Shown: positions 20,561-40,200 of the stretch, in pieces
Layout: each line of letters starts with the position of its first letter
How positions within the stretch are numbered: position 1 is the stretch's first letter
Assembly: GCA_031389245.1 (NCBI GenBank)
Contig: JANMSL010000729.1
Span: forward strand, 1-44,224
Length of the DNA stretch: 44,224 nt
DNA from: Lysobacterales bacterium
GTDB taxonomy: Bacteria; Pseudomonadota; Gammaproteobacteria; Xanthomonadales; Ahniellaceae
Direction: 5' to 3'
Program-made: the position numbers and the translations under genes
The notes under the pieces: generated by a model
Database searches by the model: none
What the model was told of the DNA's origin: nothing
The model's input: the letters and a program-made list of their open reading frames with translations, nothing else

Positions 20561-22447
20561 CTACTCAAAACCATTTGCAAACACCGTATCGCCTGCGGGC
20601 AGCGTCAGCAATTCGATGCCATCGAGACTGACCTGCGCGCCGGCACCGACGATCACCTGTCGGGCAAACTCGAAGTTGGCAACGCCATCGGCCACGGTGG
20701 TCACAAACCCAATGCGCTGCGCCTGGCGCCAGCCGATGGCACTGTAGATGTCGTAGTTGTCGAGCACACGCGTGCCTTCGACAAGTGCGCCCAGGCTGCG
20801 TGTGGCATTGTTAAAGGTCACGGTATTGGAAAGGTAGAACACCGCCAGATAGCGGCCATTGGGCACGGTCAGTGCGTAGCTGAAGGCGGTTCCGCGGCGG
20901 CTGTCCAGATGCAGCACGTCGTCTTCGCTGCCATACAGCCCACGAAATCCGCTGTTGATGCTCGCTGCGCTGCCGCCGGTAAAGCCAGTGTCAGCCTCGA
21001 AGCTGACTGCACCATTGCCGACATCGGCTCCGGTCATTGCGGCGCCGCCGACATTGATCGCTCGCGCTGTCGGTCGCGGCGCGGCAGCGGCAAGCACCAG
21101 CACGGCAGATTCGCCATGCACTGGCGCGCCGCCGTCGTTGACGCTGACGCGCAGTCGATAGGCGCCTGCGTTGCTCGGGGTCCACCAGGCCAATTTCGGA
21201 TCGGCACTGTCGATTTCGAACGCGACTGTCGTGGGGCCTTCCAGCTGCGAGAAACTGATCGTCGCCGGCTGCGGCAAGTCGTCGTCGTCGACCAGTGCAC
21301 GCACGCGCAGCGGACGGCCAACGCGCGTAACCGGCTCCACCCACAGCACTACCCGCGGCGAGCGTGCGGCGGGAATGGGATGCACCACACGCACGCTACG
21401 CGAAAACGTCGTGTTGCCAGCAAACGCCGCGACATAGCTGGTGCCCGTTGCCTGGGCGCGCAGCACGGTGCTGGCGTCGGCTGGCACTGGCAACGCGGGC
21501 GCGGTGAACGATGTGGTGCCGGTGGCGGTGCCGCTACTCGCGCCAAAACTGTAGTTGACGCTGCTGACCGCGGCATCGGCAGCGCCCGTGGTGCCACTGA
21601 GCGCCACCGTGCCGGCATTGGTATACAGCGTGCCCCCATTCGCGGGCAGTGTGAGCTGCACCGCAGGATCAGTGAAGACCTGCGGCAAATGCCAGCGTTG
21701 CGCAATCAGCCAGGGTGCCAGTTTGGCGACCGCATAGCTCTGCGGAAAAATGCCGTGGCCACCGCTGGCGAATTCGGTATAGAGCGGATCGGCGCCCACC
21801 GTGCGCAGGCCGGCAACGCCTTCGCGTGACGAAATCGGCAATACGGTGCCATCGTTGGCCGCATGAAAAAACCACATCGGTACCCGCGCGATGATGGGAT
21901 GCGTCACCACATTGGAAATATTGTAGGCCGGGCAGACCGGCAACGCCGCCGCGGCGATGCTGTCGAAGTTACTGGCCAATCCCAGCGCGCCGGCCCCGCC
22001 CATGGACAGGCCGGTGACATACAGCCGCGCAGGGTCAAAGCCAAATTCGCGCTGTACGTCGTCGAGCATGTCGATCGAACCGACCAGTGGACCTTCGTTC
22101 GACCACCAGTCGTTGGGCTGGGTATTCGGGCACTGCGGCGCAACCACGATCATCGGCACAGCGGCCGCTTCGACCGCATTGACCAAAGCGAACATGCCGT
22201 TGGCACTGTTGTTCAACTGCGCAGTATTGTTGCTGCCGCGCTCCCCTGCGCCATGATAGAAAAGCAGCAGTGGGCAACGCCGATTGCTGCACGCCGCTGG
22301 CACGTAGACCCGATAGGGCAACGCAATCGCGCTGCCGCCATCCACCGACACTGTCCGCGATGCAAAATCACCGACCACCACCGTAGCGCAGGCAGTCAAC
22401 GGCATTAGCATCGACACCCAAAGCAGAACACCTGTGTGCGCTCGCAT
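20561..22447 (-). CDS. Lipoprotein alpha/beta-hydrolase esterase fused to Ig-like repeats and a malectin-like carbohydrate-binding domain
   Basis: 628 aa. Lipobox: LMPLTAC. Oxyanion region: LLLFYHGAGERGSNN. Nucleophile elbow: GLSMGG. Acid and base candidates: HAANDGTV and SGGHGI. Malectin-like segment: INVGGAAMTGADVGNGAVSFEADTGFTGGS. It ends in TVFANGFE followed by the stop. Confidence 0.75.
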   Translation of the reverse strand: MRAHTGVLLWVSMLMPLTACATVVVGDFASRTVSVDGGSAIALPYRVYVPAACSNRRCPLLLFYHGAGERGSNNTAQLNNSANGMFALVNAVEAAAVPMIVVAPQCPNTQPNDWWSNEGPLVGSIDMLDDVQREFGFDPARLYVTGLSMGGAGALGLASNFDSIAAAALPVCPAYNISNVVTHPIIARVPMWFFHAANDGTVLPISSREGVAGLRTVGADPLYTEFASGGHGIFPQSYAVAKLAPWLIAQRWHLPQVFTDPAVQLTLPANGGTLYTNAGTVALSGTTGAADAAVSSVNYSFGASSGTATGTTSFTAPALPVPADASTVLRAQATGTSYVAAFAGNTTFSRSVRVVHPIPAARSPRVVLWVEPVTRVGRPLRVRALVDDDDLPQPATISFSQLEGPTTVAFEIDSADPKLAWWTPSNAGAYRLRVSVNDGGAPVHGESAVLVLAAAAPRPTARAINVGGAAMTGADVGNGAVSFEADTGFTGGSAASINSGFRGLYGSEDDVLHLDSRRGTAFSYALTVPNGRYLAVFYLSNTVTFNNATRSLGALVEGTRVLDNYDIYSAIGWRQAQRIGFVTTVADGVANFEFARQVIVGAGAQVSLDGIELLTLPAGDTVFANGFE

Positions 22448-22758
22448 ACCCGCTCACCGTCTTTGTCGCTGAGCGCAAGATGATACACACGCGCCCGAAT
22501 CCGCGGCGCCCGCGCGCTGCCAACTGCATCACATTCTGCTTCATGCGGCTTGTCGGCGCACACGGTAGCGCCCGATCCCAAGACGACCGCGCACGGCGCT
22601 GTGCACTGGGAAACTGGTTAGTCGGTGCCGCTCACGCTTCTGCGTATGCTGGTGATTGGCGCGGCCAAAACGGTCAAGAAAATTTGAGCATTGCAGATTG
22701 ACTGAAGGCACAAGATGCCCGCATTGATCCCGTACTGATCGCGCGTACCCACGGCCAG

Positions 22759-23844
22759 TTATCGCACCGCGGCGCCGGTGTCGAACGCGATGCGCTGCGT
22801 TAACAGTGCCTTTCCTTGCGCATCATTCAGCCGCATGGAGAGTTCGCGACGTTGCCAGTCGATCTCCAGCATGCCGAAATTGGCGACGCTGTAAGCGCTG
22901 CCCAGACGCTTGGCGTTGGGCACAGCCACCGGCCAGGTCTCGGTGAGACCACTTGATGTCAGGTCCCACAGGGGATAGGCAACATTGCGCTTCTGCGAGG
23001 TTATTTCGCCGTAGTGGGTGTCGCCACTGATAAAAACGATGCCGCGCGCATTGGTGTTGCGAATCAGTTCGTACAACCGTTGCTGATCTTCAACGTAGTT
23101 GGCCCATGCTTCCCACGCAGGAAAGTCAGCGAGCACCTGTAGGCTGGAGCCAATGATGCGCAGGTCCGCAGGCTTGCGCAGCTCGTCCTCCAGCCACTGC
23201 CACTGTGTTTCGCCCAGCATGGTGGCGTTGGGGTCGGCGTTGCGCACATACGGACCCGGCACTTCGCCGGTCTTGCCCTTTTGTTGCTCGTACCACAGAT
23301 CATAGGTTTTGGTATCGCCCCAGCGCGCGTCCACGGTGATGGGAGTGCGGTTGTAGCGCAGGTCGAGCAGAATGATCTGCACGCGTTGGCCGACAGGGCC
23401 GTAGTAGTAAGAGGTGTAAATGCCATCCCGTTCACGTCTGGGCGATTCCTTCGGCTCTTTCCAGAAATCCAGGAATTGACGACGCGTCTCTTCCTTCATC
23501 GGATAGTCGCCACCGGCGTCGTCCTCACCATAGTCGTGGTCGTCCCAGGTAGCGATCACCGGTGTTTTTGCGCGAAGTTTCTTGAAGCCGGGATTGGCTG
23601 CAAACTGTGCATATTTCTCGCGCATGACTTTGGGCTCACGCGTGTCCAGATAAACATTGTCACCGAGAAAGACGAACAGCTCGGGCTTGGACTTCAGCAC
23701 CGCGCCCCAGATCGGTTGCTGCTTGTTCTCGCGCGCGCAGGAGCCAAAAGCGATCCGCGTCAATGTCTGCTCGAGCGCTACGGCATTGGTCGGCGCGCTC
23801 AATAGCCCAGCAGTCAGCGACAGTGCCAGCGCAAATGTACGCAT
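22759..23844 (-). CDS. PhoD-family alkaline phosphatase / phosphodiesterase
   Basis: The start at 23844 (MRTFALALSLTAGLLSAPTNAVA) lies 2 nt after the upstream TBDR stop. Metallophosphatase motifs: FVFLGDNVYLD, ATWDDHDYGEDDAG, VFISGDTHYGE. Confidence 0.8.
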   Translation of the reverse strand: MRTFALALSLTAGLLSAPTNAVALEQTLTRIAFGSCARENKQQPIWGAVLKSKPELFVFLGDNVYLDTREPKVMREKYAQFAANPGFKKLRAKTPVIATWDDHDYGEDDAGGDYPMKEETRRQFLDFWKEPKESPRRERDGIYTSYYYGPVGQRVQIILLDLRYNRTPITVDARWGDTKTYDLWYEQQKGKTGEVPGPYVRNADPNATMLGETQWQWLEDELRKPADLRIIGSSLQVLADFPAWEAWANYVEDQQRLYELIRNTNARGIVFISGDTHYGEITSQKRNVAYPLWDLTSSGLTETWPVAVPNAKRLGSAYSVANFGMLEIDWQRRELSMRLNDAQGKALLTQRIAFDTGAAVR

Positions 23845-23846
23845 GA

Positions 23847-26084
23847 TCAGAAACTCGCATCGACAGTGAAGAACCATTGCCGCGGCGCGCCCGTCAACAG
23901 CGTGTAGTTGTTGCCATTCGGATCGGAAGTGACGAAGCCATTGCTGCCGACTGTCGAAAAGTATTCCTTGTCCAGCAGGTTGGTCACCTGCAGCTGCAAC
24001 TTCAACGCCTTGAATGCTCCGACCTCACCAAAGTCATAACCGGCCGACGCGCTGAGCAACCAGAAATCTTCGACTTTGGAGTCGTTCAAGTAGGTGATGA
24101 AGCGTTCATCGGTGTATTGCGCGATGATCCCCGCGCTGAGCGCGCCTGAGGTATAGCTCAGGTCCGAGGTGAATAGCACCTGCGGGGTGCCCACCACTTG
24201 CTTGCCACTGGCGGGCACCAGGTTTTCCCCGTCCAGATAATCCGAGCGGTACTCAGAATCGTTATAGGAGACCGAGTGGTACCAGTTGATCTCGTCGCTG
24301 AGGTTCAGCGCGAGCGCCGCTTCGACACCGTTGGACTGCACCTTGCCGACGTTGGCGAAGCTGGACGGGCAGCCGACGATTCCGGCGCAACGGGCAATGG
24401 ACAGCAAGCGGTTGTCAAAGCGCACGTTGTACAACGCGATCGACGCCTGATACCAGTCCCGTTCGCTGCGCAGGCCGAGCTCGAACGTATCGGATGTCTC
24501 TGGCTCCAACGTATCTGCGAACAGGTTGAAGGCGGATTGGCTGGCCGAAAACGGGCCGCCCACGCCGGGTCGGAACGCTGCCATGTTCTTGGTGTAGGAC
24601 GAGAAAATTTCTTCGTTGTCGGTGAACTGATAGCGGGCTGCGATCTGCGGCAAGAAGCTGTCGTTGGATTCGATACTGCCACTGGCACGGCTACCGATCA
24701 GACTGATTGCATCGATATCGACATCGGTGCCTTTGAATCCGACATCGATGGCCAAAGCGCCTTCGAGCAGGTCGATTCTGTCACTGATGAAATACTGGGT
24801 TGTGTCGGTATCAAATCGCTGCCGGAATACGCGCAGATCCGGGTCGCGATAGAAAAACGATTCATCTGGCGGATTGTTGCGGTCGAGGTTGTAGAAATTG
24901 CGCTGCAGACCATGCACGCTGTTCTCGACCCAGATACCGGCGCTGATGGTGTTGATACCGAAAGTAGCCGAGATGCTGGGTATGAAGCCGGTGCGTTCGA
25001 TGTCGTACTCGGTGGTGCGTATCGAGATCGGCACGGTAGGAGAAGGACGGTAAGGTGTGGCCCACGTGCCCTGGCCTGCGTTGCGGTGATAGTAGGCGAG
25101 CATCTGAACGGCGATCGCATCGGTGGCCTGCCAGTCGAGATTGACCGAAGCCATATCATCATCGCGCAATCCGCTGGCTGTGTAATACGCGTCGTCGAGA
25201 CTATTCGCCGCGCCGCTGTAAATTCCGTTGGCGGCGTCGATCGCACGTTGCCAATCCGGTTGATAGTTGTCCCAGTCCCAGCCCAATCTCTGCTGCGACT
25301 CCAGCGACAGATCAGCGTAGTCGATTTCATTGCGACGCGAGGTGGAGACATATCCGGCAAGACTGAACCATTCGTTGCTGTAGACCAGTTTGCCGTTGAA
25401 CTGTGACTGCTCCTGGTCGCCGGCACCTTTCCATTTGTCCGTATCCGCGAACGCAAAGCTGAGATAGCTGCTGAAGCCACCGTGCTCGCCGCTGTCCATG
25501 CTGGCAAAGGTGCGCCAGGCACTGTCGCTGCCGAAGCTCTGCGCCACGCGGACGCCAAAGTCCGGCTCGGGATTGCGCGTAAAGAATTGCGCGGTGCCGC
25601 CCAGATTGCTGGTCGAAGCGGTGGCGATCGCGCCAGCGCCTTGTGCAAGCTCTACGCGCTGAAGGTTTTCTGCGGCTACGGCGCGGCTGATGTGCATGCC
25701 GTTGTGGTTGCCGTAGCTCATGTCGCCAAGGGGCACGCCATCCAGGGTGAAGCCGAGCTGGTTTTGGCCAAAACCACGAATGCTGATGCGCGTCGACCAT
25801 TCGTAATTGCCGAACGGATCCGCGGACTGGAAGCTCACGCCCGGAAGCTTGCTCAGCAATTTCAACGGACTGGTGCCGGCCGGGAGTTTCTGTGCCTCCA
25901 CTTCGATGTCCAGCTCTTGCACTTGACGCGTTTCGCCTTTGCCGATCACCGATATCCCTTCGAGCGTCGCTGCATCGGCATCACCTGTATCCACGGCTGT
26001 ATCCACCGTGGTCTGCGCGAATGAGGTGCCGGCGCAGAGCGCGCTGCAAATCGCGGTGGCAAGGAGTGAGCGAATCGCGTTCAT
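23847..26084 (-). CDS. TonB-dependent receptor
   Basis: The start at 26084 (MNAIRSLLATAICSALCAGTSFAQ) gives a clean signal peptide. Plug motifs: SPLKLLSKLPGVSFQSADPFG, RISIRGFGQNQLGFTLDGVPLGD. The C-terminus is ...FTVDASF. Confidence 0.85.
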   Translation of the reverse strand: MNAIRSLLATAICSALCAGTSFAQTTVDTAVDTGDADAATLEGISVIGKGETRQVQELDIEVEAQKLPAGTSPLKLLSKLPGVSFQSADPFGNYEWSTRISIRGFGQNQLGFTLDGVPLGDMSYGNHNGMHISRAVAAENLQRVELAQGAGAIATASTSNLGGTAQFFTRNPEPDFGVRVAQSFGSDSAWRTFASMDSGEHGGFSSYLSFAFADTDKWKGAGDQEQSQFNGKLVYSNEWFSLAGYVSTSRRNEIDYADLSLESQQRLGWDWDNYQPDWQRAIDAANGIYSGAANSLDDAYYTASGLRDDDMASVNLDWQATDAIAVQMLAYYHRNAGQGTWATPYRPSPTVPISIRTTEYDIERTGFIPSISATFGINTISAGIWVENSVHGLQRNFYNLDRNNPPDESFFYRDPDLRVFRQRFDTDTTQYFISDRIDLLEGALAIDVGFKGTDVDIDAISLIGSRASGSIESNDSFLPQIAARYQFTDNEEIFSSYTKNMAAFRPGVGGPFSASQSAFNLFADTLEPETSDTFELGLRSERDWYQASIALYNVRFDNRLLSIARCAGIVGCPSSFANVGKVQSNGVEAALALNLSDEINWYHSVSYNDSEYRSDYLDGENLVPASGKQVVGTPQVLFTSDLSYTSGALSAGIIAQYTDERFITYLNDSKVEDFWLLSASAGYDFGEVGAFKALKLQLQVTNLLDKEYFSTVGSNGFVTSDPNGNNYTLLTGAPRQWFFTVDASF

Positions 26085-26596
26085 GGCATTACCTTTTCTT
26101 CGGGCCGCGCACTCTTTCCTGCCATTGAGGAAGCAGGCCATGCTTGGCGTTGGTTGAGGCGCGCATGCTGCACGGCGCCCATGACACGCGCGTGTTGAGT
26201 TGATGGCTTTGACTTGACAAGCACGCTACGGGATTGTGTATAGCGACCGGTAAACCGAAGTGTTCTTGATCGCTGAATCGGTCTCGCGGGCACGCTGCGC
26301 AGGCGGATGCCGTCAGACAGTAAAGGTCAGTGCCGTGGTTCTATTTGCTCAGTCGACAGCATTTCACGCGTGTTGCCTCACCAGATATTTCCGATGCTGC
26401 GCGCGCCTGGCTTGGTCATTCGACCGCTGACGCAAATGCGGTCAACTGCGGCCGCGTGCGACATTGATTCCCACACCGGTGCGCGATCGGGTGCAAAGCC
26501 GCCACATTAGTCCGGCCCAGGCCCATCTCGTCGGCGACAGCGATTAGCGATTCGATGCGATGCCTTGACGTGGTCGTTCGCGAGCGATCCAACTAG

Positions 26597-26625
26597 TTGC
26601 AAATGCGAACGCGTCGTAATACGCT
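26597..26625 (+). promoter_or_regulatory. Candidate promoter, with a possible degenerate Fur box, upstream of the hemP-like ORF
   Basis: TTGCAA-17 nt-TACGCT lies immediately upstream of the ATG at 26632. The A/T-rich segment GCAAATGCGAACGCGTCGTAAT matches only about 8 of 19 positions of the GATAATGATAATCATTATC Fur consensus by my alignment. Confidence 0.2.
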
Positions 26626-26631
26626 TACCGA

Positions 26632-26808
26632 ATGCCGACCAATGCACCTCCGCCCTCTGCGCCTAACTCCACACACCTCAACAACCCGCCCAGACGCATT
26701 TCCAGCGAATCGCTTTTTAGTGGCGCGACGATGCTGGAAGTCGTCCACAACGGCACGGTCTACCGCCTGCAAATCACGGCTTCAAACAAACTGATCTTGA
26801 CCAAATAG
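26632..26808 (+). CDS. hemP: HemP/HmuP-family small protein (58 aa), absent from the supplied ORF track
   Basis: Manual translation: MPTNAPPPSAPNSTHLNNPPRRISSESLFSGATMLEVVHNGTVYRLQITASNKLILTK then TAG. The C-terminal pattern (I.S..L..G...V.H.G..YRL..T...KLILTK) is the hallmark of the PF10636 hemin-uptake protein HemP family. The ORF sits 63 nt upstream of a TonB-dependent receptor. Confidence 0.7.
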   Translation: MPTNAPPPSAPNSTHLNNPPRRISSESLFSGATMLEVVHNGTVYRLQITASNKLILTK

Positions 26809-26871
26809 ATCAAAAAATACACCAGCCCGCCCACGCCAGCCAGTGTTCCCCACCATCACCAGGGACACCCT

Positions 26872-29130
26872 ATGCGCATCAAGCGAACCCGGGCAACTAC
26901 GCCGCATTGCACATCCGACACTGCACTACTGCGGCAATTTTCGCCCGCAGCCACGCTTGCACCTTCTGCCCGCCCACTATTGCCTTTGGCCGCGCTGATG
27001 CTCGCCGGTGGCGCGTCTTTTGTTAGTGCCGGAGCCATACTGAGTGCGGAGGAAGTTGCCGATACCAAAACCATGGATAGCGTTGAGGTCGTCGGCTCCA
27101 AGCCGAAAGACGGCTACCGCGCAAGCACCACCTCCACTTTGAAAACGGTTCAAGACCCGCACGCGGTACCGCAGGCGTTGACCACGATCACCAATGTCTT
27201 GATGGAGGAACAGCAAGTCGGCTCACTTCGCGATGCACTGCGCAATGTTTCCGGGCTGACATTCAATGCAGCTGAAGGAGGGCGCACCGGCGATAACGTC
27301 ATGCTGCGCGGCTTTTACAGTTTCGGCGATCTGTACCTCGATGGCATCCGCGATACCGCGCAATACAACCGCGAAACGTTTTATCTTGAGCAGATCGATG
27401 TACTGCGTGGCGCCGCCGCGATGTTGTTTGGCCGTGGCCAGGCCGGCGGGGTGATCAATCAAGTCAGCAAAGCGCCCACCACAGAAGCGCAGCAGGAACT
27501 CTCGCTCAGTGCTGGCACGCTCGACTATGCTGAGGCCACTGCCGATCTGAACCTGCCGTTAGGCGCCGATCACGGGCTACGCGTCAACCTCATGCATCGC
27601 GACGAGGGCAGCACGCGCGAGAACCCCAGTAATGGAGACGGACCCGAGCTGCATCGCAGTGGCATCGCTGCCAACCTGGGTTTCAATATCGGCGGTGGCA
27701 ACCAGCTCAATCTGGCCCATGTCTACACCGCCACGCGTGATGTGCCCGACTACGGTGTGGCGTTCGATCGCACTACACGCCGCGTCAACACCAACTTCCC
27801 GGTGGATACGTTCTGGGGCAATGCGCGCAATTTCGACGACAGCGAAAACAATCTGAGCACACTGAGCTACGTACACCGGTTTCAATCCGGAGCACAATGG
27901 AGCACGCAATTTCGCCAAGCCGACTATGAGCGTCAATACTGGGCGAAGACACCCAGCGCCACTCTGGCGCCCAGTCCGGTTGGCGCTGTGGGCGGCAACC
28001 CAACGCGAAACAGCGACTATGCAACACAGACTCTGCAGTCGGATTTCACTACCGAGTGGCAGGCCTTTGGCATGCTGCATGAACTGCTGATCGGCGGCGA
28101 ATACATGGGCGAAGACAGCTACCGTCGCGCGTTGTTGAACCTGGGCACGACCGCCGCCCCGCGTTACCGACCGAACGTGGAAAACACTGCGACCTTGCCG
28201 GTTACCTTTGATGGCGACAGCTACGCGCTGTACCTGCAGGATTCCGTACAGTTCGCTCCCAACTGGAAGCTGTTGCTCGGCGCGCGTCGTGATGATCTCA
28301 AAGCGGAGTATTCCAGTCTGACCTCACCGCAACTGGAGTTTGGCGAGTGGAGCACGCGCTATGGTTTGTCCTGGCAACCCAACGCCAGCACGCACTATTA
28401 CCTGACGCGAAGTGACTCTTTCAGCCCAACCGCCGATCTGTACCAACTCTCGGGCGCAGGCTATCCGGCAGAGACCAGCGATGTGCTGGAGGCGGGCGCC
28501 AAATGGCTGCTACTCGACGGAAACCTGGCGTTTCGCAGCGCAATCTATCGAGCGGAAAAGCAATGGGAGCGGAACACGGACCTGGAGTCCACCGCTGCCA
28601 TCCTGACCCGCGAACGGCGCAGCGATGGCATCGAGTTTGAATTGATCGGGCGTATCACTCCGCAGTGGGAAATCTTCTCCGGCCTGGCACTGATGGATTC
28701 GAAAATTCTCAAGGTGGCGGAAAATCGCAATGCCACCACTGGCGTCATCACCCGGGCTGATCCACGTCTGCAGGGCGTGCAGGCGCGCAATGCGCCGGAC
28801 TACACCGCCAATGTCTGGACCACATACGCGTTGGACGAGCGTTGGAAGCTGGGCCTGGGCTTCGAGAGCAAGGATCAGCGTCTGGTCTACTCGCCGTCCA
28901 CGGCGGACGCCAGCGCCCTATTCGTCGATGGCCGCTTCGACCCCAATACTGCACCAAGCTACGTGCGTTGGGACGCCATGCTGGCGTACGCAGCAGAGCA
29001 CTGGCAAATGCGTCTGAATTTCCGCAACCTGTTTGACGAGGTTTACTACGACGCGCTCTACGACAATGGCGGCTTTGCCATACCGGGCACACGGCGCAGT
29101 GCGATCCTGACCACGGAATTCACGTTTTGA
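26872..29130 (+). CDS. TonB-dependent catecholate-type siderophore receptor (Fiu/PiuA-like)
   Basis: 752 aa. Plug region: VPQALTTITNVLMEEQQVGSLRDALRNVSGLTFNAAEGGRTGDNVMLRGFYSFGDLYLDGIRDTAQYNRETFYLEQIDVLRGAAAMLFGRGQAGGVIN. The C-terminus is TTEFTF. A piuC/ybiX homologue follows, as in fiu-ybiX and piuA-piuC loci. Confidence 0.85.
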   Translation: MRIKRTRATTPHCTSDTALLRQFSPAATLAPSARPLLPLAALMLAGGASFVSAGAILSAEEVADTKTMDSVEVVGSKPKDGYRASTTSTLKTVQDPHAVPQALTTITNVLMEEQQVGSLRDALRNVSGLTFNAAEGGRTGDNVMLRGFYSFGDLYLDGIRDTAQYNRETFYLEQIDVLRGAAAMLFGRGQAGGVINQVSKAPTTEAQQELSLSAGTLDYAEATADLNLPLGADHGLRVNLMHRDEGSTRENPSNGDGPELHRSGIAANLGFNIGGGNQLNLAHVYTATRDVPDYGVAFDRTTRRVNTNFPVDTFWGNARNFDDSENNLSTLSYVHRFQSGAQWSTQFRQADYERQYWAKTPSATLAPSPVGAVGGNPTRNSDYATQTLQSDFTTEWQAFGMLHELLIGGEYMGEDSYRRALLNLGTTAAPRYRPNVENTATLPVTFDGDSYALYLQDSVQFAPNWKLLLGARRDDLKAEYSSLTSPQLEFGEWSTRYGLSWQPNASTHYYLTRSDSFSPTADLYQLSGAGYPAETSDVLEAGAKWLLLDGNLAFRSAIYRAEKQWERNTDLESTAAILTRERRSDGIEFELIGRITPQWEIFSGLALMDSKILKVAENRNATTGVITRADPRLQGVQARNAPDYTANVWTTYALDERWKLGLGFESKDQRLVYSPSTADASALFVDGRFDPNTAPSYVRWDAMLAYAAEHWQMRLNFRNLFDEVYYDALYDNGGFAIPGTRRSAILTTEFTF

Positions 29131-30817: not shown

Positions 30818-32596
30818 TCACTCAAAACCATCGAAGAAGATTGGATCGATCTCCGTCTGCCAAACAATCAGCCCATCGGCATTGATCGGCGGCGCACCGA
30901 TGAACTGCAGTTGTCCGCTGGCCAGATCGACTCGGAACAAACCGGTCTGCGCCGCACTGGCGAGCGTCGCGTAGGCGGTGCCAGCGGCTGGCATACTGTT
31001 GGCCGGAGCGTTCACGCCAGGTGGAATGTCGAAACCGGCGCTGGACAGAAAATCAAATGCAACGCCGCCAAACGTCAAAACCTGGCTCGGGGTCTGAGTC
31101 CCGGCATTGGGTGGATTCTGGATCAACAGCTGATTGCCTGCAGGGTCGAGCGTGTACAAAGTGGTGATTGTCGTACCCGCAAAATTGTTGGTGTAGCCCG
31201 CACCGCCGAGGCCGGTCACGCCGGCGCCATTGATCGATCCGTCGGGATTGACGCCAGGGCTGGCGGCATCTCCATCGACCGGACCACCGGTGATCGGGTT
31301 GACGCGAAAGTTCAGGCCGTTGGTCAGAGACACGACGCGAAGTCGATCGACCGCGGGATTGAAGTCCACGCCGTAAGCCGTGTCAGCGAAATCAATCGGA
31401 GTGCCGACACCGTCGACAAAGGTGATTATGCCAGGCACACCGCCGACGATGGAGAGCGTACCGGTCTGCGGATCGACGACATACACGGTTCCGGTGTTGG
31501 TCGCCGCGTTGATGCCAAGAGCGTAGACGCCGCCTGTCGCCGGACGACCATCCATGCCTACGATCGTTTCGCCAGCGACCCCGCCGGTGAGCGACACCAT
31601 GACTGCGGACTGTGGCTGTCCCAGCGGAAACCGCGCGAGCTGCACCGACGCGACACTCGACACCAACGCAGTCGGGTTCACCGACACGGCGATATCGCGC
31701 GCAGTGATTCCACTGAAAGCACCGACCAACGTTGCCGTAGCGTTGGCCAAGTTGAGACGATAGAAGTTGCTGTTGCCGCCAACCAATGACACCAGGTAAC
31801 CGGTGCCATTGGCGGGAGCATTGCTGCTCGCCACGTCGACGCCGGGCGGAATATCGAACCCGGTGTCGACGTTGAGATCAAGCGGCGAGCCGTTCTGCAT
31901 CACAATCTGCGCTGCGGTCAACGTGCCCATGTTCGGCGGATTCTGGATCATCAATTGGTCGCTGGCCGCGTCGATCGTATACAGCGTTGTTGCCGTGGTG
32001 TTGATGCGACTATTCGTATAGGCGCAGGCATGCGCCGTATTGGCTGCACCGTTGAGTGCCCCGTCCATATTCAGGCCCGCTACGCTGCCGGGGCTGCCAC
32101 CCAGATCGCCATCAACGAATGCTCCGGTGTTGGGGTTCATGCGGAAGTTGCGCCCGTCGCTGGTGACCACGCGCACACGATCAACAGCGGGATTGAAGTC
32201 CACTCCAAATCCCGCGGAGGTGATCAGGACGGGCATCCCGATCGCGTCCACAAACGTGCCCGGTGTTCCGATCGGGGTCGCAAGCGCCGAGCTGATACTG
32301 CTGCTGATGTGGTACAGCTGTACGGTTCCGGCGCCCGCGTTGGCGCCCAAAGCATAGAGTCGTCCGTTCGATGGACGTACGTCGATTGCCTGCAGCGTGT
32401 CACCGGCATTCACGCCGGTGATCGGTAGCGGCGCGCCGATCGCGGTGGGCTGCGATTCGCTGCTCTGCGCCAGCTCGTTGTTGCTGGTCAATATATGCAC
32501 GGTGCGATCCGGCACGCCCGCCAACACGGAAGCCGCTGTCAGTGCGCAAAGCACTGCGACCAGCGCTTGAAGGCGAAGCCTGTATTTCTGATTCAT
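30818..32596 (-). CDS. Secreted protein with two DUF4394 domains
   Basis: 592 aa with signal peptide LQALVAVLCALTAASVLAG. The family hallmark occurs twice: GFGVDFNPAVDRVRVVTSDGRNFRMNPNTGA and AYGVDFNPAVDRLRVVSLTNGLNFRVNPITGG. LYTIDAASDQLMIQNPPN and LYTLDPAGNQLLIQNPPN are also duplicated. It ends in PIFFDGFE followed by the stop. Confidence 0.8.
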   Translation of the reverse strand: MNQKYRLRLQALVAVLCALTAASVLAGVPDRTVHILTSNNELAQSSESQPTAIGAPLPITGVNAGDTLQAIDVRPSNGRLYALGANAGAGTVQLYHISSSISSALATPIGTPGTFVDAIGMPVLITSAGFGVDFNPAVDRVRVVTSDGRNFRMNPNTGAFVDGDLGGSPGSVAGLNMDGALNGAANTAHACAYTNSRINTTATTLYTIDAASDQLMIQNPPNMGTLTAAQIVMQNGSPLDLNVDTGFDIPPGVDVASSNAPANGTGYLVSLVGGNSNFYRLNLANATATLVGAFSGITARDIAVSVNPTALVSSVASVQLARFPLGQPQSAVMVSLTGGVAGETIVGMDGRPATGGVYALGINAATNTGTVYVVDPQTGTLSIVGGVPGIITFVDGVGTPIDFADTAYGVDFNPAVDRLRVVSLTNGLNFRVNPITGGPVDGDAASPGVNPDGSINGAGVTGLGGAGYTNNFAGTTITTLYTLDPAGNQLLIQNPPNAGTQTPSQVLTFGGVAFDFLSSAGFDIPPGVNAPANSMPAAGTAYATLASAAQTGLFRVDLASGQLQFIGAPPINADGLIVWQTEIDPIFFDGFE

Positions 32597-32760: not shown

Positions 32761-32781
32761 CGGTTCAAATCGTTTGAACCG
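32761..32781. promoter_or_regulatory. 21-bp palindrome in a 500-bp divergent intergenic region
   Basis: CGGTTCAAA-TCG-TTTGAACCG has perfect 9-bp arms. It lies between the DUF4394 gene (minus) and the fasciclin gene (plus). Confidence 0.25.
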
Positions 32782-33613: not shown

Positions 33614-34033
33614 CCGGAAATGTCAGGTCTGCGGCGCGGCAATGAAACGCGCGGCAGAAGCGAGCTGGCTAACAGGTTGTTCGTGCCTCAATGGTGCCGA
33701 GCAACGTGCCGCTTTAGTGTTCCAACATCGCTGCGTCGCAGACCTGCTTTGAATCGAAACGCATCGTTGCCAAACATCGACGCCTGCGTTTTGCGTGGAA
33801 GACTCGCTGTTCCAAGCGCTGAGTTACTTCGGGTCGGCCATGAGCCGAAAGCCAGGATCAGTATGAACCGCGATCGCCGCGTTGCTCACTATCGTAAACA
33901 CTCCTCCGGCGCTTGCCCGCAGAACCCGACATTGACAGTTTCACTCTGTACGTAGTCCATGCAATTGCTGTTTTTGAGATAGCCTCTGTCAGTCAACCCG
34001 AACCGGGGTCGACGCCACGACCGAGGAATCGCT

Positions 34034-34462
34034 ATGCAAGTCCGTCTTACATTTTTGTTTGGCGCGCTGATGTGTTTATTCATGATGGGCGCCGGCTCTG
34101 CGGAAGAGACCGTCGGTCGGGCACCGGCGATGCGCATCGCAACCGACCCGGGCGACCCTGTCGAACCTCAGCACGGACAATCAACCGCGCAACTTGCGAC
34201 TGCCGAGCAAGACCGGCTTACCCAGGCGAATGACCCTGCGTTTCGTCAAGCAGACGAGGGCCTGCAGATCATCTACTTGGAAGATGGCTCCAGCATGATG
34301 GAGCTTCAGGGTCGATTCCAACACGCTACCGTTGCCGAGGTGCAAGCGGATGCAAGCGTGCGAACACACTGCCAAGACGCTGATCATCTGAGACTTGGCG
34401 AGCATGTGCATGATTCGGTGGCGATACCGGCCAGAGCCAACTCCACCGCCGAAGATCATTGA
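34034..34462 (+). CDS. Hypothetical small secreted protein
   Basis: 142 aa. GAGGA lies upstream of the ATG. Signal peptide: LTFLFGALMCLFMMGAGSAEE. The stop lies 10 nt before the next gene. I recognise no family. Confidence 0.55.
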   Translation: MQVRLTFLFGALMCLFMMGAGSAEETVGRAPAMRIATDPGDPVEPQHGQSTAQLATAEQDRLTQANDPAFRQADEGLQIIYLEDGSSMMELQGRFQHATVAEVQADASVRTHCQDADHLRLGEHVHDSVAIPARANSTAEDH

Positions 34463-34472
34463 GGATTCTGTG

Positions 34473-35894
34473 ATGAAACCTCATTGCATTTTTGCCATCT
34501 CGCTCGCTCTGAGCACCCCGCTCGCCCATGCAGCCATCTTCGTGATCAACAATCTGAACACCGCTGGCGAAGGACTCAATGATCCGACGGTAGTCGCCGC
34601 ATTGCCCAGCAACCCGCATACGACTTTGGGCGAACAACGTCTTTACGTGTTACAGGCCGCCGTCAACCAGTGGGGCACATTGCTGCAAAGCTCGAGGCCC
34701 ATCATTGTCGATGCCACATTCGAACCGTTGGCTTGCACCAGCACCGCCGCAGTTCTTGGATCCGCCGCACCTCAGAGCGTCCATCAAAACTTTGCGAACG
34801 CTCCAGTGGCAAACGTTTGGTACAGCCAGGCATTGGCCAATTCATTGGCAACCACCGATTTGAGCGCCCTCAGCGATATCAGAGCGCGATTCAGTTCTAC
34901 GCTTGATAGTGGCTGCATGTCAGGTACACCGGGCTGGTATTACTCAACGCTCGCATCCGACACCACTGCGGATGGGCGCATTGCGCTGCTCCCCGTGGTG
35001 TTCCATGAATTGGCCCACGGCCTCGGATTCCAGACCTTTACCAGTAGCAACACGGGCGCCTTCAACGCGGGCGTGCCTTCGATTTGGGATACGTTTCTCG
35101 CGGATGCCGTTACCGGAACGACGTGGATCAACATGCCGGATAATGCGGCCAGGCAGGCCTCGGCGATCAGCGATCCCAATCTGATCTGGACGGGGCCGAT
35201 CGTGACTGCTGCGAAGAACAATTTTCTCGGCCCTGCACCGACGTTGATGGTCAACTTGCCAGCGACCATCGCCGGTCAAAGAGCCGCCCTTCCCGCTACC
35301 TTTGGCGCAACGGTGCCGGCGAAGGGGATCATCGGGGATGTGGTCGCAGCTGTGGATAGCGGTGGCGCGAACCTTCTCGATGGCTGTGAATCGATCTCCA
35401 ACGATGTGTCCGGCAAGATTGCGCTGATGGTTCGTGGCAATTGCAATGTCACGGTGAAGATCATGAATGCGCAAACGGCCGGCGCGATCGCAGCGCTCAT
35501 GCACCACAATACTGCTGCAGGGCTACCCAGCATGGCCGGAACCAATGCCGCCGTGAACATTTCGTCTTACGGCATTTCGCAGGCAGACGGCAATACGATA
35601 CGTGCGGAACTGTCATTACCGAGTGTGGTGAATGTGACGCTCGGATATGGCACGCAGATGGCCGGAACGACGCTCAGCGGGGGCACCCCTTTCGTGCGTA
35701 TGCATGCGCCCAATCCTTCGCAAGGCGGGACGGTGGCGCACTTTACTCTGGACGCATTCCCCAGCCTGCTGATGGAACCCGCTTACCCTGCCCAATACAA
35801 TGAAGCCGACCTGACGATTCCGTTGTTTGAGGACATTGGCTGGCAGGTGACGGTGCCGACGTCGCTGTTACCGTTCCAGGATGGCTTTGAGTAA
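34473..35894 (+). CDS. Secreted zinc-metallopeptidase-like protein with an inserted PA (protease-associated) domain
   Basis: The start at 34473 (MKPHCIFAISLALSTPLAHA) follows GAGGA. HExxH motif: VVFHELAHGLGF. PA-domain signature: GKIALMVRGNCNVTVKIMNAQTAGAIAALMHHN. It ends in LLPFQDGFE followed by the stop. Confidence 0.7.
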   Translation: MKPHCIFAISLALSTPLAHAAIFVINNLNTAGEGLNDPTVVAALPSNPHTTLGEQRLYVLQAAVNQWGTLLQSSRPIIVDATFEPLACTSTAAVLGSAAPQSVHQNFANAPVANVWYSQALANSLATTDLSALSDIRARFSSTLDSGCMSGTPGWYYSTLASDTTADGRIALLPVVFHELAHGLGFQTFTSSNTGAFNAGVPSIWDTFLADAVTGTTWINMPDNAARQASAISDPNLIWTGPIVTAAKNNFLGPAPTLMVNLPATIAGQRAALPATFGATVPAKGIIGDVVAAVDSGGANLLDGCESISNDVSGKIALMVRGNCNVTVKIMNAQTAGAIAALMHHNTAAGLPSMAGTNAAVNISSYGISQADGNTIRAELSLPSVVNVTLGYGTQMAGTTLSGGTPFVRMHAPNPSQGGTVAHFTLDAFPSLLMEPAYPAQYNEADLTIPLFEDIGWQVTVPTSLLPFQDGFE

Positions 35895-36152
35895 GGCCTA
35901 GGGCGTCAGGGGCGAGTAGCACTTTTTAAATGCGAGTTCGGGTTCATCTGACCCTGTCTTCAGCTGCTTCACATCGGGAATGGACCACACCGAGCACCGA
36001 CGACATCGGGCGCGCGCGACACGCGAGCGCCAACACTGGTGCGTCAGAAGAATGTCCACTTCCATCGCGGCTGCGGCCCAAGCGCGTCGGAAGTTGAACG
36101 CATTGCGGGACTCCAATGGACGCGCCTGTTTCCCACCAGCGAGACCATTGCC

Positions 36153-38138
36153 ATGCCCGCCGCGCGTTCCGCCTCACGCTCTGTGCTATCACGAACCGGT
36201 TTTTCGCTGATCGGCCTTTTGTTCATCGGTCCCTCCTTACTGCTTGCAAGTGTCCCGTTGGCCGCGCAGACGCTGCCAACACCCGGCATGGCAGTGCGCG
36301 GGCCCAACACGGCAGCAATGGTGTTGCCGGCCACCACAACGGAGGTCGAGATCGATGTCGCCGGCATGGTGGCGCATGCCCGTGTGCGGCAGCGCTTCAT
36401 CAATCCAGGCGACGATTTTCTGGAGGGTCAGTATCGGCTGCCGATGCCCGCCGACAGCGCCGTTTTCGCGATGCGCATCGAACTGGATGGGCGCCTGATT
36501 GAAGGTGAGATTCGCGAGCGCGAAGCCGCACGTATCGAATACGAAGCCGCCAAAAGTGCAGGCATGGCGACAGCACTGGTGGAACGCCAGGCGGTCGATA
36601 TGTTCTCTACCCGCGTCGCCAACATTCCGCCGAAGTCGGAAGTCAGCATCGAGATCGAATACTTCCAGAGTGTTGGCTATCGCGATGGCCGATTCGAGCT
36701 GGTGTTCCCGCTGACGCTGCGTCCGCGCTATGGCAGCACTGCGACGAACGACCTGAGCGCTGCACTCGATGCCGCAGAGCCGGCGGCTACAACCAGCGGA
36801 CTCACTCTGCCCGCCCGCATCGAAATTCATCTCGCCGCAGGCATTCCGATCCAGGCGCCGCAATCGGCTTCGCACGCGATTCTGGTTCAGCGCAAGGGGA
36901 AGGCATTTCAGATACTGACCCGCGAGGAGCGCGTTGCCGCGGATCGCGACTTCGTGCTGCATTGGACACCACAGTCCAATGTCGCCGCGCAGGCGGCGAG
37001 TTTTGTCGAGGAGATCAATGGCGAGCGCTATCTGAGCCTGATGCTGGTGCCGCCAACCCAGGCGGGTCCGCGCCTGCCTCGCGAACTGATTCTGGTGCTG
37101 GACAGCTCGGGCTCGATGATGGGTGCAGCCTGGAATGGCGCACAAAAGGCTGCGGACTTCGCGCTGACCCAGATCGCACCCGGCGACTTTTTCAATGTCG
37201 TCGATTTTGACAGCACTGCCAGTGCGCTCAGCCCGATGTCGTTACCGATGAATGCGCAAACCATCGCCACCGCGCGCGAGTTCGTTGCCACGCGCAGTGC
37301 CGATGGCGGCACCGAGATCGCCGGCGCGCTCGATCTGGCCCTGTCATTTCCGCCTATCAATACGCATGTGCGCCAAGTGGTATTCATCACCGATGGTGCG
37401 GTCGGCAATGAGGAGGAGATCTATCGTCATATCGCCGCGGGCAACACTGATGCACGATTGTTCATGGTCGGTATCGGCAATGCCCCGCACCGAGCTTTCC
37501 TGCGCCGTTCGGCGGAACTCGGCCGCGGCTTTGCCGAGATCATCGAGTCCGCCGACGCCGTCGATGTGCCACTGCAAGCCCTGTTCCAACGCATCGATGC
37601 GCCGGTGTTGACGCGTATCGAAGTCGAGTGGCCGGATTCGGCTGAAGCCTGGCCGAAGCAATTTCCCGATCTCTACGCCGGCGAGCCGTTGTGGTTGACC
37701 AGCCGCATGAAAATCGGCAACGCAGCCCGCCAGGAAGTGAAGGTAAGCGCGCAGGGCCTATCCGCGAAGTTTGCCAAGGGGATGCCGATCAAGCAGGCTA
37801 CGCCGGCTGTCGGCATCGCCAAGATTTGGGCACGACGCAAGATCCAGGCACTCGAAGACGAGCTCAATCTTGGCGCCAACGAGGAGAACGTTCGCACTCA
37901 AGTGTTGGCGACAGCGCTCGAGCATCGGCTGTTGTCGCGCTACACCAGCTTTGTTGCGGTTGAGAAAATAGTGCGCCGCCAGGAAGGCGACGCCCAGGGC
38001 AAAGCTGACTTTGCCAATCCCACACCAGCCGACGCCGAAGGATTCGCTCAAACCGCGCTGGGCTGGCGTGCGCTGTTGTTGCTCGGCCTGTTGATGATGA
38101 TGCTGGCCAGCGTCACGCTACTGCGCACGCGTGCATGA
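36153..38138 (+). CDS. VIT + von Willebrand factor A domain protein with a C-terminal sortase-type sorting signal (proteobacterial sortase target)
   Basis: The start at 36153 gives the signal peptide SLIGLLFIGPSLLLASVPLAAQ. VIT region: VEIDVAGMVAHARVRQRFINPGDDFLEGQYRLPMP...FSTRVANIPPKSEVSIEIEY. vWA MIDAS: LILVLDSSGSM. C-terminus: GFAQTALGWRALLLLGLLMMMLASVTLLRTRA (motif, hydrophobic span, basic tail). Confidence 0.85.
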   Translation: MPAARSASRSVLSRTGFSLIGLLFIGPSLLLASVPLAAQTLPTPGMAVRGPNTAAMVLPATTTEVEIDVAGMVAHARVRQRFINPGDDFLEGQYRLPMPADSAVFAMRIELDGRLIEGEIREREAARIEYEAAKSAGMATALVERQAVDMFSTRVANIPPKSEVSIEIEYFQSVGYRDGRFELVFPLTLRPRYGSTATNDLSAALDAAEPAATTSGLTLPARIEIHLAAGIPIQAPQSASHAILVQRKGKAFQILTREERVAADRDFVLHWTPQSNVAAQAASFVEEINGERYLSLMLVPPTQAGPRLPRELILVLDSSGSMMGAAWNGAQKAADFALTQIAPGDFFNVVDFDSTASALSPMSLPMNAQTIATAREFVATRSADGGTEIAGALDLALSFPPINTHVRQVVFITDGAVGNEEEIYRHIAAGNTDARLFMVGIGNAPHRAFLRRSAELGRGFAEIIESADAVDVPLQALFQRIDAPVLTRIEVEWPDSAEAWPKQFPDLYAGEPLWLTSRMKIGNAARQEVKVSAQGLSAKFAKGMPIKQATPAVGIAKIWARRKIQALEDELNLGANEENVRTQVLATALEHRLLSRYTSFVAVEKIVRRQEGDAQGKADFANPTPADAEGFAQTALGWRALLLLGLLMMMLASVTLLRTRA

Positions 38139-38677
38139 AGCGACTTGCACTGCGCGGGCTGGCCTGGCTACTGCTGATTGGCGGCGGCCTGCTGTCCGCG
38201 CAGGCGCTGTATCCGCTCGCCAAAGGACAACTGGCGATGCGGTTGATCGCCGATGCGTACGCGCATTCTCCCGGCAGCCGACCGTGGCCACAGGCGGATT
38301 TTCGCGGCGTCGCGCGGCTGCAGGTGCCGCGCCTGGATGTGAACCAGATTGTGCTCGACCAGGCCACGCCGCGCGTGCTCGCGTTCGGCCCTGGGCTGGT
38401 GCATCGCAATCGACACGCCGGTCCGATCATCAGCGCGCATCGTGATACGCACTTCAACTGGATCGGTCGTTTGCAGCAGGGAGATGAACTGCTTTGGGAG
38501 CAAGGCGGTGTGGTCCATCGCTATCGCATCGCCGCGTTTCGTGTCGTGGATAGTGACCAGCAGCGCATCGCGCTGCCCGACTCCGAAACCTTGTTGCTCA
38601 CTACTTGCTGGCCGTTGGAAGCATTGACCGCGGGTGGTTCGATGCGCTACGTGGTGACCGCCATCGTGATGCGCTGA
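38135..38677 (+). CDS. Sortase, Gram-negative (class GN / marine proteobacterial) type
   Basis: The ATG at 38135 overlaps the target gene stop (ATGA). N-terminal anchor: GLAWLLLIGGGLLSA. Catalytic His context: IISAHRDTHFNW. Cys: LLLTTCWP. Arg: GGSMRYVV. Confidence 0.85.
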   Translation: MKRLALRGLAWLLLIGGGLLSAQALYPLAKGQLAMRLIADAYAHSPGSRPWPQADFRGVARLQVPRLDVNQIVLDQATPRVLAFGPGLVHRNRHAGPIISAHRDTHFNWIGRLQQGDELLWEQGGVVHRYRIAAFRVVDSDQQRIALPDSETLLLTTCWPLEALTAGGSMRYVVTAIVMR

Positions 38678-38694
38678 AGATTTTGACAACTGCT

Positions 38695-40200
38695 TCAGTC
38701 GTGCTGACTGGGCGCTGCGTTTTCGAATCCGTGCTTGAACAGCAAGTCCGGCCGAAATTCGATGGCGCCTACGTCGCAAATCGCGACGCCGTTGGCATCA
38801 CCGTCGTAAGGTCGTGTGGCACCGCGCGCGTCGGTCGACGGACACAGCGTAAAGCTGCCGTTGTCGATGGCCGGGCTACCCGGCGCTACGTCGAGCGTCG
38901 GCACGTAGCCCCCATTCATCGCCGGCGGCTGCAACCCGAAATTGTTTCCGGGGAACTGCGCAGTGATCAAATTGCCGGCGACACTTGCATAGCAAGTGTT
39001 TCCGGTCATGAACACGGCTTCGCCGGCGTCGGAATTGAATGCGGTTTCCGCGCAACTTTCACCAAAAAGCGGCGGCCCGAACAACACATTGCGCATGTCC
39101 CGTACGGGTGTCGGCGCGCCCAGGCTGGTACCGAGATCAAGGTCGGATCCGCTGCCGCTGTGGGCGGTGTTGCGATGAAAGGTGACGTTGCTCAATCGTA
39201 GATCAGCGGGCTGGGCACCGACCGCAAAAATAATCAGGCCACCACCTCGGTTTGCAACATTCTCGAAGAACGTCACATTTTGCATCTGCAACCGCACCGA
39301 TTGCAGCAGAACCGCGCCGCCAGAAAAGCCTTCGTTCTGCCCAAAGTACGCGTTGTTGATAAACACGTTGGCAGCAGCCCCCGTGCTCGAGCTGTAAATG
39401 GCCAAGGCGCCGCCACGCCCGCGTTGTCGGCTGGTCTGACACTGGGTCCAGTTGCCGGTAAAGCTCACGTCAGCGAATTGGGCGTTTTGACCCGCGGGCA
39501 GGAACATGGCGACCGCACCGCCGTCACCGGCTGGACAACCGCCGGTCGGATTGGATTTCAGGATGCGATTCTGCTGAAACGTACTGCGCGCGATGCTCAC
39601 CATGGATCTCGCGGCGATTGCGCCGCCGTCCGGCAATGGAGCCAGCAGATTGTTGTCGTTTGCTTCATTTCCGGTAAAACGCGATCGGATCACCGAGAGC
39701 GGACCTTCCGCATAAATCGCACCACCACGTCCGGAAACCGAGTCATTCGCTGCCGCGCGGCAGTCTTCGAATACCAGATTGTCGACCTCGGCAATCGTTG
39801 CTACGCGCATGACAGAAAGGCAACCGCCGAAGGGTCTGCTGCCGCCTCGTAGCGTAAGGTTGCGCAGCGTGAGTCGCTCGGTATCGCCGGAGAAATCCAC
39901 ACGAAACATGCCCTGGCCGTTGCCATTGATCACCAGTCCCGGTGTATCGCCGCCATCGATCAGCACTTCGCTACCACGCACTGCCGGCAGCGTCTGGCCC
40001 AACGTGATAACGCTGTTGGCGGGCAGCTGGAAACGCACCACCTGCACGTTTGCACCGGGACTCAACTGGGTAACGGCAGCATCAAGTGTGCCCGGTCCGT
40101 TGGCTGCGGCGGAAGTGACCATCAGTGTCGTCTGTGCTTGCAGGACGCCTGCAATTGCGCCCGCAAGCAACACCGCAACAGTGCGTAGTGGCAAGAACAT
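38695..40200 (-). CDS. Secreted right-handed beta-helix protein (choice-of-anchor Q-like)
   Basis: 501 aa with signal peptide VAVLLAGAIAGVLQAQ. Repeated beta-helix rungs: GGAIYAEGPLSVIRSRFTGNEA, GGAVAMFL, GGALAIYSS, GGGLIIFA. C-proximal ICDVGAIEF is typical of this repeat class. The tail is LLFKHGFENAAPSQHD. Confidence 0.65.
   Translation of the reverse strand: MFLPLRTVAVLLAGAIAGVLQAQTTLMVTSAAANGPGTLDAAVTQLSPGANVQVVRFQLPANSVITLGQTLPAVRGSEVLIDGGDTPGLVINGNGQGMFRVDFSGDTERLTLRNLTLRGGSRPFGGCLSVMRVATIAEVDNLVFEDCRAAANDSVSGRGGAIYAEGPLSVIRSRFTGNEANDNNLLAPLPDGGAIAARSMVSIARSTFQQNRILKSNPTGGCPAGDGGAVAMFLPAGQNAQFADVSFTGNWTQCQTSRQRGRGGALAIYSSSTGAAANVFINNAYFGQNEGFSGGAVLLQSVRLQMQNVTFFENVANRGGGLIIFAVGAQPADLRLSNVTFHRNTAHSGSGSDLDLGTSLGAPTPVRDMRNVLFGPPLFGESCAETAFNSDAGEAVFMTGNTCYASVAGNLITAQFPGNNFGLQPPAMNGGYVPTLDVAPGSPAIDNGSFTLCPSTDARGATRPYDGDANGVAICDVGAIEFRPDLLFKHGFENAAPSQHD

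Follow-up and report, generated by a model that had tools for sequence, protein, structure and literature searches.

The stretch of DNA considered here, hereafter the window, comprises 44,224 nucleotides of contig JANMSL010000729.1 from a Lysobacterales bacterium (assembly GCA_031389245.1). It encodes four exported proteins, a lipoprotein, a double DUF4394 protein, a zinc metallopeptidase with a PA domain and a right-handed beta-helix protein (genes 1 to 4, Table 1), which were annotated with Pfam and NCBIfam models and which share a short C-terminal tail containing the residues GFE. This tail is a portable, lineage-specific short linear motif limited to signal-peptide proteins. As it lies where other bacteria carry sorting signals, it is probably the mark of a sorting or anchoring route not yet described.

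Four exported proteins with a common C-terminal end

The tails were first pointed out in a preliminary description of the window, and translation reproduces the ends reported there exactly: four unrelated proteins, all with signal peptides, have the same tail, in which the stop codon follows the glutamate directly in three cases and after eight extra residues in the fourth. The latter protein, encoded by gene 4, ends ...PDLLFKHGFENAAPSQHD-stop, and its choice-of-anchor Q domain stops just ahead of the tail. An aspartate at position -3 of the motif (defined below) is present in three of the four tails. The earlier statement that the other secreted proteins of the window lack the tail also holds, with no GFE near the C-terminus of any other window protein and no tail on the remaining exported products (four TonB-dependent receptors, fasciclin, PhoD, M20, penicillin amidase and DUF2845 proteins). 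GFE occurs nine times over the six frames of the window, and four of these occurrences are the tails. Taking the internal GFE frequency as background, the probability that at least three of 29 window proteins end in GFE is about 8.5e-8, which agrees with the original judgment that chance is a very unlikely cause.

At the DNA level, the four gene ends resemble each other only in the motif codons, these codons differ from gene to gene, and the flanking DNA is unrelated. A DNA repeat or 3' cassette is ruled out on these grounds, and constraint therefore acts on the protein. All three stop codons, TAG, TGA and TAA, are represented after the tails, and no continuation coding for a transmembrane (TM) segment was found beyond them. 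Unusual codon usage was considered as well and ruled out, since the tails are ordinary by comparison with the codons counted in the window.

Structure prediction places the tail outside the fold of its carriers. The AlphaFold2 model of the DUF4394 protein has a mean predicted local distance difference test score (pLDDT) of 91.2 and a predicted template modeling score of 0.90, and in its last 13 residues pLDDT is 65 and then 47, with no strand. The beta-helix protein likewise has a confident core, and its residues 484-501 have pLDDT below 50. In these models the tail is a flexible appendage, and its predicted disorder therefore fits a linear motif and not a structural element.

Table 1. Coordinates of tail genes, tails and other features in the window and in compared loci
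Feature	Sequence	Position	Strand	Description
Gene 1	window	20561-22447	-	Signal-peptide lipoprotein, lipobox LTAC; N-terminal part like polyhydroxybutyrate (PHB) depolymerase esterases, malectin PF11721
Tail 1	window	20561-20590	-	D-T-V-F-A-N-G-F-E then TAG; protein end ...GDTVFANGFE
Gene 2	window	30818-32596	-	Double DUF4394 protein (PF14339 twice), signal peptide
Tail 2	window	30818-30847	-	D-P-I-F-F-D-G-F-E then TGA; protein end ...IDPIFFDGFE
Gene 3	window	34473-35894	+	Zinc metallopeptidase (HELAH), PA domain PF02225, signal peptide; NF038122 and M36-type PA region
Tail 3	window	35865-35894	+	L-L-P-F-Q-D-G-F-E then TAA
Gene 4	window	38695-40200	-	Right-handed beta-helix, signal peptide, choice-of-anchor Q at residues 422-482 (NF041518, 62 bits)
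Tail 4	window	38695-38748	-	D-L-L-F-K-H-G-F-E and N-A-A-P-S-Q-H-D then TGA
Variant tail	L245	6934-7716	-	...DRVFADNFE-stop (Gly to Asn)
Variant tail	L245	11974-13347	+	...GDGIFKNGF-stop (terminal Glu absent)
Sortase target	window	36039-38138	+	Dedicated VIT/vWA target, TIGR03788, 574 bits; own TM-type C-terminus
Class GN sortase	window	38135-38677	+	TIGR03784; between genes 3 and 4
Conserved gene order	L246	3795-6007		LysR, beta-helix, sortase, target
ECF sigma/kinase pair	window	9660-12948	+	ECF sigma (PF07638), Ser/Thr kinase-TPR
ECF sigma/kinase pair	L001	1081-4400		
ECF sigma/kinase pair	L002	19343-21776		
ECF sigma/kinase pair	L154	6196-8001		
ECF sigma/kinase pair	L129	7122-8003		
Small open reading frame	window	34034-34462	+	Post-PEP-CTERM-1 match, 27.2 bits (cut-off 28)
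Transposase	window	42425-43939	-	IS30-like (HTH_38 and rve)

Conservation and distribution of the motif

The logo of 75 tails from homologues defines a conserved unit of nine residues, D-x-[IL]-F-x-[DN]-G-F-E, in which the first D is position -3. The counts at its positions are 53 for D(-3), 69 for [IL] at -1, and then 71 for F, 70 for [DN], 68 for G, 75 for F and 66 for E. The GFE-type tail of the preliminary description is thus real, but only four to five of its nine conserved positions had been recognized. The stop codon directly follows the glutamate in 49 of the 75 tails, and the other 26 have 1-10 extra residues, mostly 1-4. Co-occurrence with signal peptides, proposed earlier as a check, was found among these homologues: 68 of the 75 pass a crude test, six more have a signal peptide as judged by eye, and the last is an N-terminally truncated fragment.

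Across families, the tail is much better conserved than the sequence that precedes it. In the DUF4394 family the motif stands at the end of 55 of 120 homologues, and where a Calx-beta domain has been inserted it is still C-terminal, after that domain. In the beta-helix/choice-of-anchor Q family it ends 20 of 72 homologues, immediately after a conserved CD[IV]GA[IY]E. Two orthologues of gene 4, P0122 and P0123 (87% and 75%), retain the extension as GFENAAPSQHD and GFENTSPSQHD, and more distant homologues end at GFE. The tail is also retained in orthologues of gene 1 with 94% and 74% identity (GDTVFANGFE-stop in L247, GDGVYANGFE-stop in L248), and members of the PA-peptidase family ranging from 485 to 1164 residues bear it at their end in one of two GFE forms, short or long. 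Identical tail ends recur in independent assemblies from NCBI, JGI, ENA and Logan. Variants are also seen: in L245, two tails, one with asparagine in place of glycine and one lacking the terminal glutamate (Table 1), lie beside a canonical one, giving three tail genes within 7 kb.

The wider distribution was addressed by a position-neutral DNA scan with the pattern TTCNNNGACGGCTTCGAG, which encodes F-x-D-G-F-E and does not require a stop. The sample consisted of 123 bacterial or archaeal genome matches among the loci listed (at least 120), with 120 viral-contig matches as control. Matches preceded by a hydrophobic residue before the Phe and lying at most 16 residues from the stop of an open reading frame (ORF) of at least 100 residues numbered 20 of 123 in genomes and 3 of 120 in viral contigs (Fisher p = 2.7e-4), and in none of the 120 viral matches did a stop directly follow the motif. 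The C-terminal matches fall into two forms. The short form, with 0-5 residues after GFE, was found in metagenome-assembled genomes (MAGs) of Lysobacterales/Lysobacteraceae (L208, L211, L236), of unclassified proteobacteria (L147, L228) and of Fermentibacteria (L176). The long form, hhFxDGFE[ST]G[DNT]xxxW[ST]xxxP-stop, belongs to Acidobacteriota, namely Thermoanaerobaculia (including Ca. Multivoradales) and Holophagae, where it is a stereotyped element of 20 residues, [IL]F[AS]DGFE[ST]GDTxAWSxxxP-stop. A search with a long-form profile padded to 44 residues gave 271 gene fragments, all short and without new names, and exactly 12 residues follow GFE in 99 of the best 120.

Both forms meet in L127, where a choice-of-anchor Q beta-helix protein has the long form at the place where the window protein has HGFENAAPSQHD. 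Judged from these sequences, the Lysobacterales-type gammaproteobacterial tail is the short form of a module whose long form is acidobacterial, and the eight-residue extension of gene 4 may be a degenerate remnant of the latter. The sole named DUF4394 tail carrier is from Rudaea, of the family Rhodanobacteraceae and order Lysobacterales. For the window's own DUF4394 protein an exact look-up gave no entry, and a look-up of cluster members added no names. Some ORFs consist of a signal peptide and a long-form tail alone (P0256, 39 residues; P0288, 47 residues; P0208; P0224), which could be genuine small peptides, remnants of genes or artefacts of gene calling; in P0217 the motif immediately follows the signal peptide.

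Tail genes are also found together. Additional ones, unselected by the DNA pattern, flank the tail-positive loci L001, L127, L154, L176, L193, L211, L228 and L245, and none was found in about 100 tail-negative loci. There are four copies in the window (44 kb), two in L001 and three in L245. The carriers, among them a multihaem cytochrome and GSDH, FG-GAP, subtilase, matrixin, LVIVD and PD40 proteins, are all exported but otherwise unrelated; they differ in Pfam content, and all-vs-all BLAST connects few of them.

Function of the tail and alternative explanations

In PA-peptidase homologues from other lineages, the slot of the tail holds a type IX secretion system (T9SS) type A sorting domain in P0335 (TIGR04183, 37.9 bits, cut-off 23), IPTL-CTERM in P0365 (TIGR04174, 30.7 bits, cut-off 20.5) and MYXO-CTERM in P0412 (TIGR03901, 20.7 bits, cut-off 20). 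Choice-of-anchor Q homologues have Cys/TM/Arg anchors, dockerins, an [FY]LP[LI]xx[RK]-stop tail or nothing in the same slot, and the tail-less P0166 ends cleanly at the domain boundary. The tail itself is undescribed within the resources searched. Neither on the window proteins nor on the further carriers scanned does any Pfam or NCBIfam model lie over it (E values up to 1 for ten carriers), as had been claimed of its unlikeness to curated sorting tags. In particular, TIGR04183 matches neither the window proteins nor ten other carriers. The tail is only 9-20 residues long. A full-text literature search for the motif strings and related topics gave nothing relevant, and a PDB search with the long-form peptide returned insignificant HasA matches only.

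Two further recurrent ends were noticed among the homologues. One is a second TM-less C-terminal tail, [FY]LP[LIV]xx[RK]-stop (e.g. VVYLPLIIR-stop), which is present in 25 of 192 homologues, including P0004, P0052, P0141, P0155, P0163, P0174 and P0189, and occupies the GFE-tail slot in DUF4394 and choice-of-anchor Q homologues. It is probably from Chloroflexota (a named carrier belongs to Roseiflexaceae and a further family member to Anaerolineae) and looks like another undescribed terminal tag. The other, ...IDN[VN]T[NS]DPRT[LI]LP(K)-stop, recurs in the PA-peptidase homologues P0338 and P0355.

Eight attributes for recognizing C-terminal sorting signals have been set out (Haft, bioRxiv 10.1101/2023.06.07.544157, section 5), and the GFE tail displays six of them (1, 2, 3, 6, 7 and 8). 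It stands at or close to the C-terminus, with the long form extending 12 residues further (attribute 1); several copies occur per genome as judged on loci, up to four in the window (2); six positions are nearly invariant, [IL] at -1 and the five well-conserved residues of F-x-[DN]-G-F-E counted above (3); signal peptides are found on all four window proteins and most homologues (6); carriers are alike in nothing but the tail (7); and homologues elsewhere have no tail or another signal, whether T9SS, IPTL-CTERM, MYXO-CTERM or dockerin (8). A secretion or retention tag is the best reading of a tail that is real, portable and uncurated and that sits in the slot of T9SS, IPTL-CTERM and MYXO-CTERM signals. 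More precisely, the comparative data suggest, with a probability that we put at about 55%, that the tail is a TM-less C-terminal tag for sorting or retention, which is read after the carrier has undergone Sec export.

Under such a mechanism, the carrier would cross the inner membrane by Sec export with its flexible tail exposed. A lineage-specific factor would then read the tail in the periplasm or at the outer membrane, and would either send the cargo to the surface or the outside of the cell or keep it there. The recognized element would be the nine-residue core and not the free carboxylate, given the tolerance for trailing residues; the 26 homologue tails with extra residues, together with the 12 that follow in the long form, weaken the earlier suggestion of a PDZ-type reader if this is taken to depend strictly on a free C-terminus. 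With no membrane-stop segment, intramembrane sortase-type processing is unlikely; the tail would more likely be bound non-covalently, or be cut by an enzyme that is soluble or sits in the outer membrane. A bolder and more tentative proposal, possible rather than probable, is that short and long tails alike label cargo for a post-Sec pathway of diderm bacteria, so far undescribed, that sorts proteins or anchors them at the surface. This pathway would read a TM-less nine-residue peptide by means of its own dedicated receptor or enzyme, common to Lysobacterales and Acidobacteriota, perhaps through calcium-assisted strand complementation of a jelly-roll receptor.

Several points weigh against a sorting or retention tag. 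Two of the eight attributes are lacking: there is no TM helix (4), as the stop comes 0-12 residues past GFE without a hydrophobic stretch, and no basic cluster (5), as the ends are E, EP, ES, EN... or ...TVP without clustered Arg or Lys. The best-understood sorting mechanism therefore cannot apply. The 24 tail-positive loci yielded no cognate receptor, protease or secretion component, and all-vs-all BLAST of their ORFs gave as recurrent neighbors only SDR proteins, an ABC ATPase and a pair formed by an extracytoplasmic function (ECF) sigma factor and a Ser/Thr kinase, probably all high-copy families. The frequencies given here are those of loci of 8-44 kb, and the taxonomy is that of MAG record titles. 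Finally, the likeness of the tail to the first strand and calcium loop of a Cip1-like domain keeps a structural or docking role conceivable.

This likeness is the basis of the docking alternative, according to which the tail would be the first strand and calcium loop of a ConA/Cip1-like jelly roll without the rest of that domain. It would complete in trans a surface receptor domain lacking its first strand, so that cargo is held non-covalently, on the cell surface or in a complex, and possibly in a calcium-dependent manner. When internal or N-terminal, the same sequence, hhFxDGFE...W, opens a Cip1-like jelly roll as its first strand, as in L233, a protein with CBM2 and PF21340 (E 4.9e-71). In hhalign, the tail profile pairs with residues 1-25 of this domain (probability 86%), which matches PDB 3ZYP, and the positions corresponding to the tail motif are Asp5 and Glu7 of Cip1, whose carbonyl and side chain, respectively, join the C-terminal strand in binding a structural calcium (PMC3764139). 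Dockerins in the tail slot of some choice-of-anchor Q homologues also favor docking. However, the likeness spans only about 20 residues and may have arisen by convergence, neither the Trp nor the second strand is present in the short form, and no receptor candidate with an incomplete jelly roll emerged, although no search was aimed at one. The complete jelly roll of about 210 residues (PF21340) matched none of the carriers scanned, where a stop codon follows the motif instead. The likeness may hint at strand complementation, and docking is kept as a minority reading that we consider unlikely. An intramolecular cap, by which the tail would fold back on its own protein, perhaps with calcium, and stabilize the last domain without any sorting role, draws on the same acidic and aromatic pattern of jelly-roll calcium sites. 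It is at odds with the variety of folds that the tail follows (beta-propeller, beta-helix, malectin, Calx-beta, metzincin), with the unstructured tails of two confidently modeled carriers and with the clean end of P0166, and appears quite improbable.

The tail could instead set maturation or half-life, not destination, as a site for a C-terminal processing or quality-control protease of the S41/Prc type or a PA-domain peptidase. Its C-terminal, flexible and exposed location would suit such a role, and trimming of long forms after GFE could yield the end of the short form. Known tail-specific proteases favor apolar termini, which counts against this idea, and a degradation tag kept on dozens of stable extracellular enzymes and swappable with sorting domains is hard to rationalize. 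The reading of C-terminal sorting peptides by PA domains in plant vacuolar sorting receptors (PMC12796998) lends it some plausibility; overall it seems improbable. Far less credible is a role as substrate signal of the neighboring class GN sortase. The preliminary description rightly noted that two tail genes (3 and 4) flank the sortase/target pair (36039-38677), but the functional link that this suggested did not stand. The sortase has its own dedicated target, tail proteins lack an LPXTG-like motif, TM helix and basic cluster, and none of the other 23 tail-positive loci compared has a sortase. Adjacency of the beta-helix and sortase genes is kept in L246, and is uninformative because it is kept only in this close relative (87% identical). 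The pair is unrelated to the tail, and the idea is largely refuted. Chance, an artefact of assembly or annotation, or a leftover stub from a linker or domain that was truncated, the last two raised at the outset as what might undo the observation, are favored by nothing except the motif's likeness to a domain start. They are refuted by the probability of about 8.5e-8, the same ends in independent assemblies, the use of three stop codons with no TM-coding continuation, and the fixed 12-residue extension of the long form.

Other features of the neighborhood may be mentioned. The ECF sigma factor is paired with a Ser/Thr kinase-TPR protein a few kb from tail genes in five of the 24 loci (Table 1), and this pair could regulate exported proteins. 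Gene 3, itself a tail carrier, has a PA domain, a lead towards a possible tail reader. The small ORF just upstream of gene 3, with its post-PEP-CTERM-1 match below the cut-off, may not be a real gene. An IS30-like transposase gene lies at the end of the window.

Comparison with known sorting systems

C-terminal sorting signals have earlier led to sortases, exosortases, rhombosortase, myxosortases and T9SS. The GFE tail has the comparative signature of a sorting signal, yet lacks the TM helix and basic cluster that sortase-type mechanisms need. In the sampled loci, several exported enzymes are tagged per neighborhood, including proteases, esterases and multihaem cytochromes, and the hosts belong to soil and sediment lineages that have received little study (Lysobacterales, Thermoanaerobaculia, Holophagae). 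Should the tail prove to be a sorting tag, it would define a cargo set, its regular expression or hidden Markov model (HMM) would be a handle for finding the machinery by phylogenetic profiling, and localization prediction would improve for many hypothetical proteins. The tail could also serve biotechnology as a very short export or display tag.

Among known systems, the outer membrane protein beta-signal read by BAM is likewise a short C-terminal motif with conserved aromatics and periplasmic reading. It ends in Phe or Trp on beta-barrels, whereas GFE carriers have soluble folds and end in Glu, and the TonB-dependent barrels of the window lack the tail. Cip1-like and ConA-like jelly rolls (PF21340; 3ZYP) have the pattern h-F-x-D-[DG]-F-E-...-W in common with the tail, but continue for about 200 residues after the motif, where GFE tails stop after 0-12. 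By analogy only, the eukaryotic KDEL/HDEL signals for ER retrieval, the peroxisomal targeting signal 1 (PTS1, -SKL) and the plant C-terminal vacuolar sorting determinant (ctVSD), which the PA domain of vacuolar sorting receptors reads, are likewise very short TM-less C-terminal peptides of a kind that soluble or membrane receptors could read non-covalently. They act in another kingdom and other compartments and need a free terminus, while the GFE core tolerates trailing residues.

The tripartite signals of LPXTG/sortase, PEP-CTERM/exosortase, GlyGly-CTERM/rhombosortase, MYXO-CTERM/myxosortase and IPTL-CTERM resemble the GFE tail in their position at the extreme C-terminus, in many copies per genome and in at least three near-invariant residues. 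They too are found on signal-peptide proteins that are otherwise dissimilar and whose homologues elsewhere have no signal or a different one. In contrast to them, the GFE tail has no TM segment or Arg/Lys cluster, is 9-20 residues long and has an acidic or polar end. Lacking the TM segment, a carrier of the tail is not retained in the inner membrane, where an intramembrane or membrane-anchored enzyme could act on it. The T9SS C-terminal domain (CTD; TIGR04183, Por_Secre_tail) is a folded domain of about 70-100 residues in Bacteroidota and relatives, whereas the GFE tail is a predicted disordered peptide of Lysobacterales and Acidobacteriota without an HMM match. Nevertheless, both are TM-less, both are carried by Sec-exported proteins of diderm bacteria, and the CTD, which is read after export, takes in P0335 the very slot that the GFE tail takes in its relatives.

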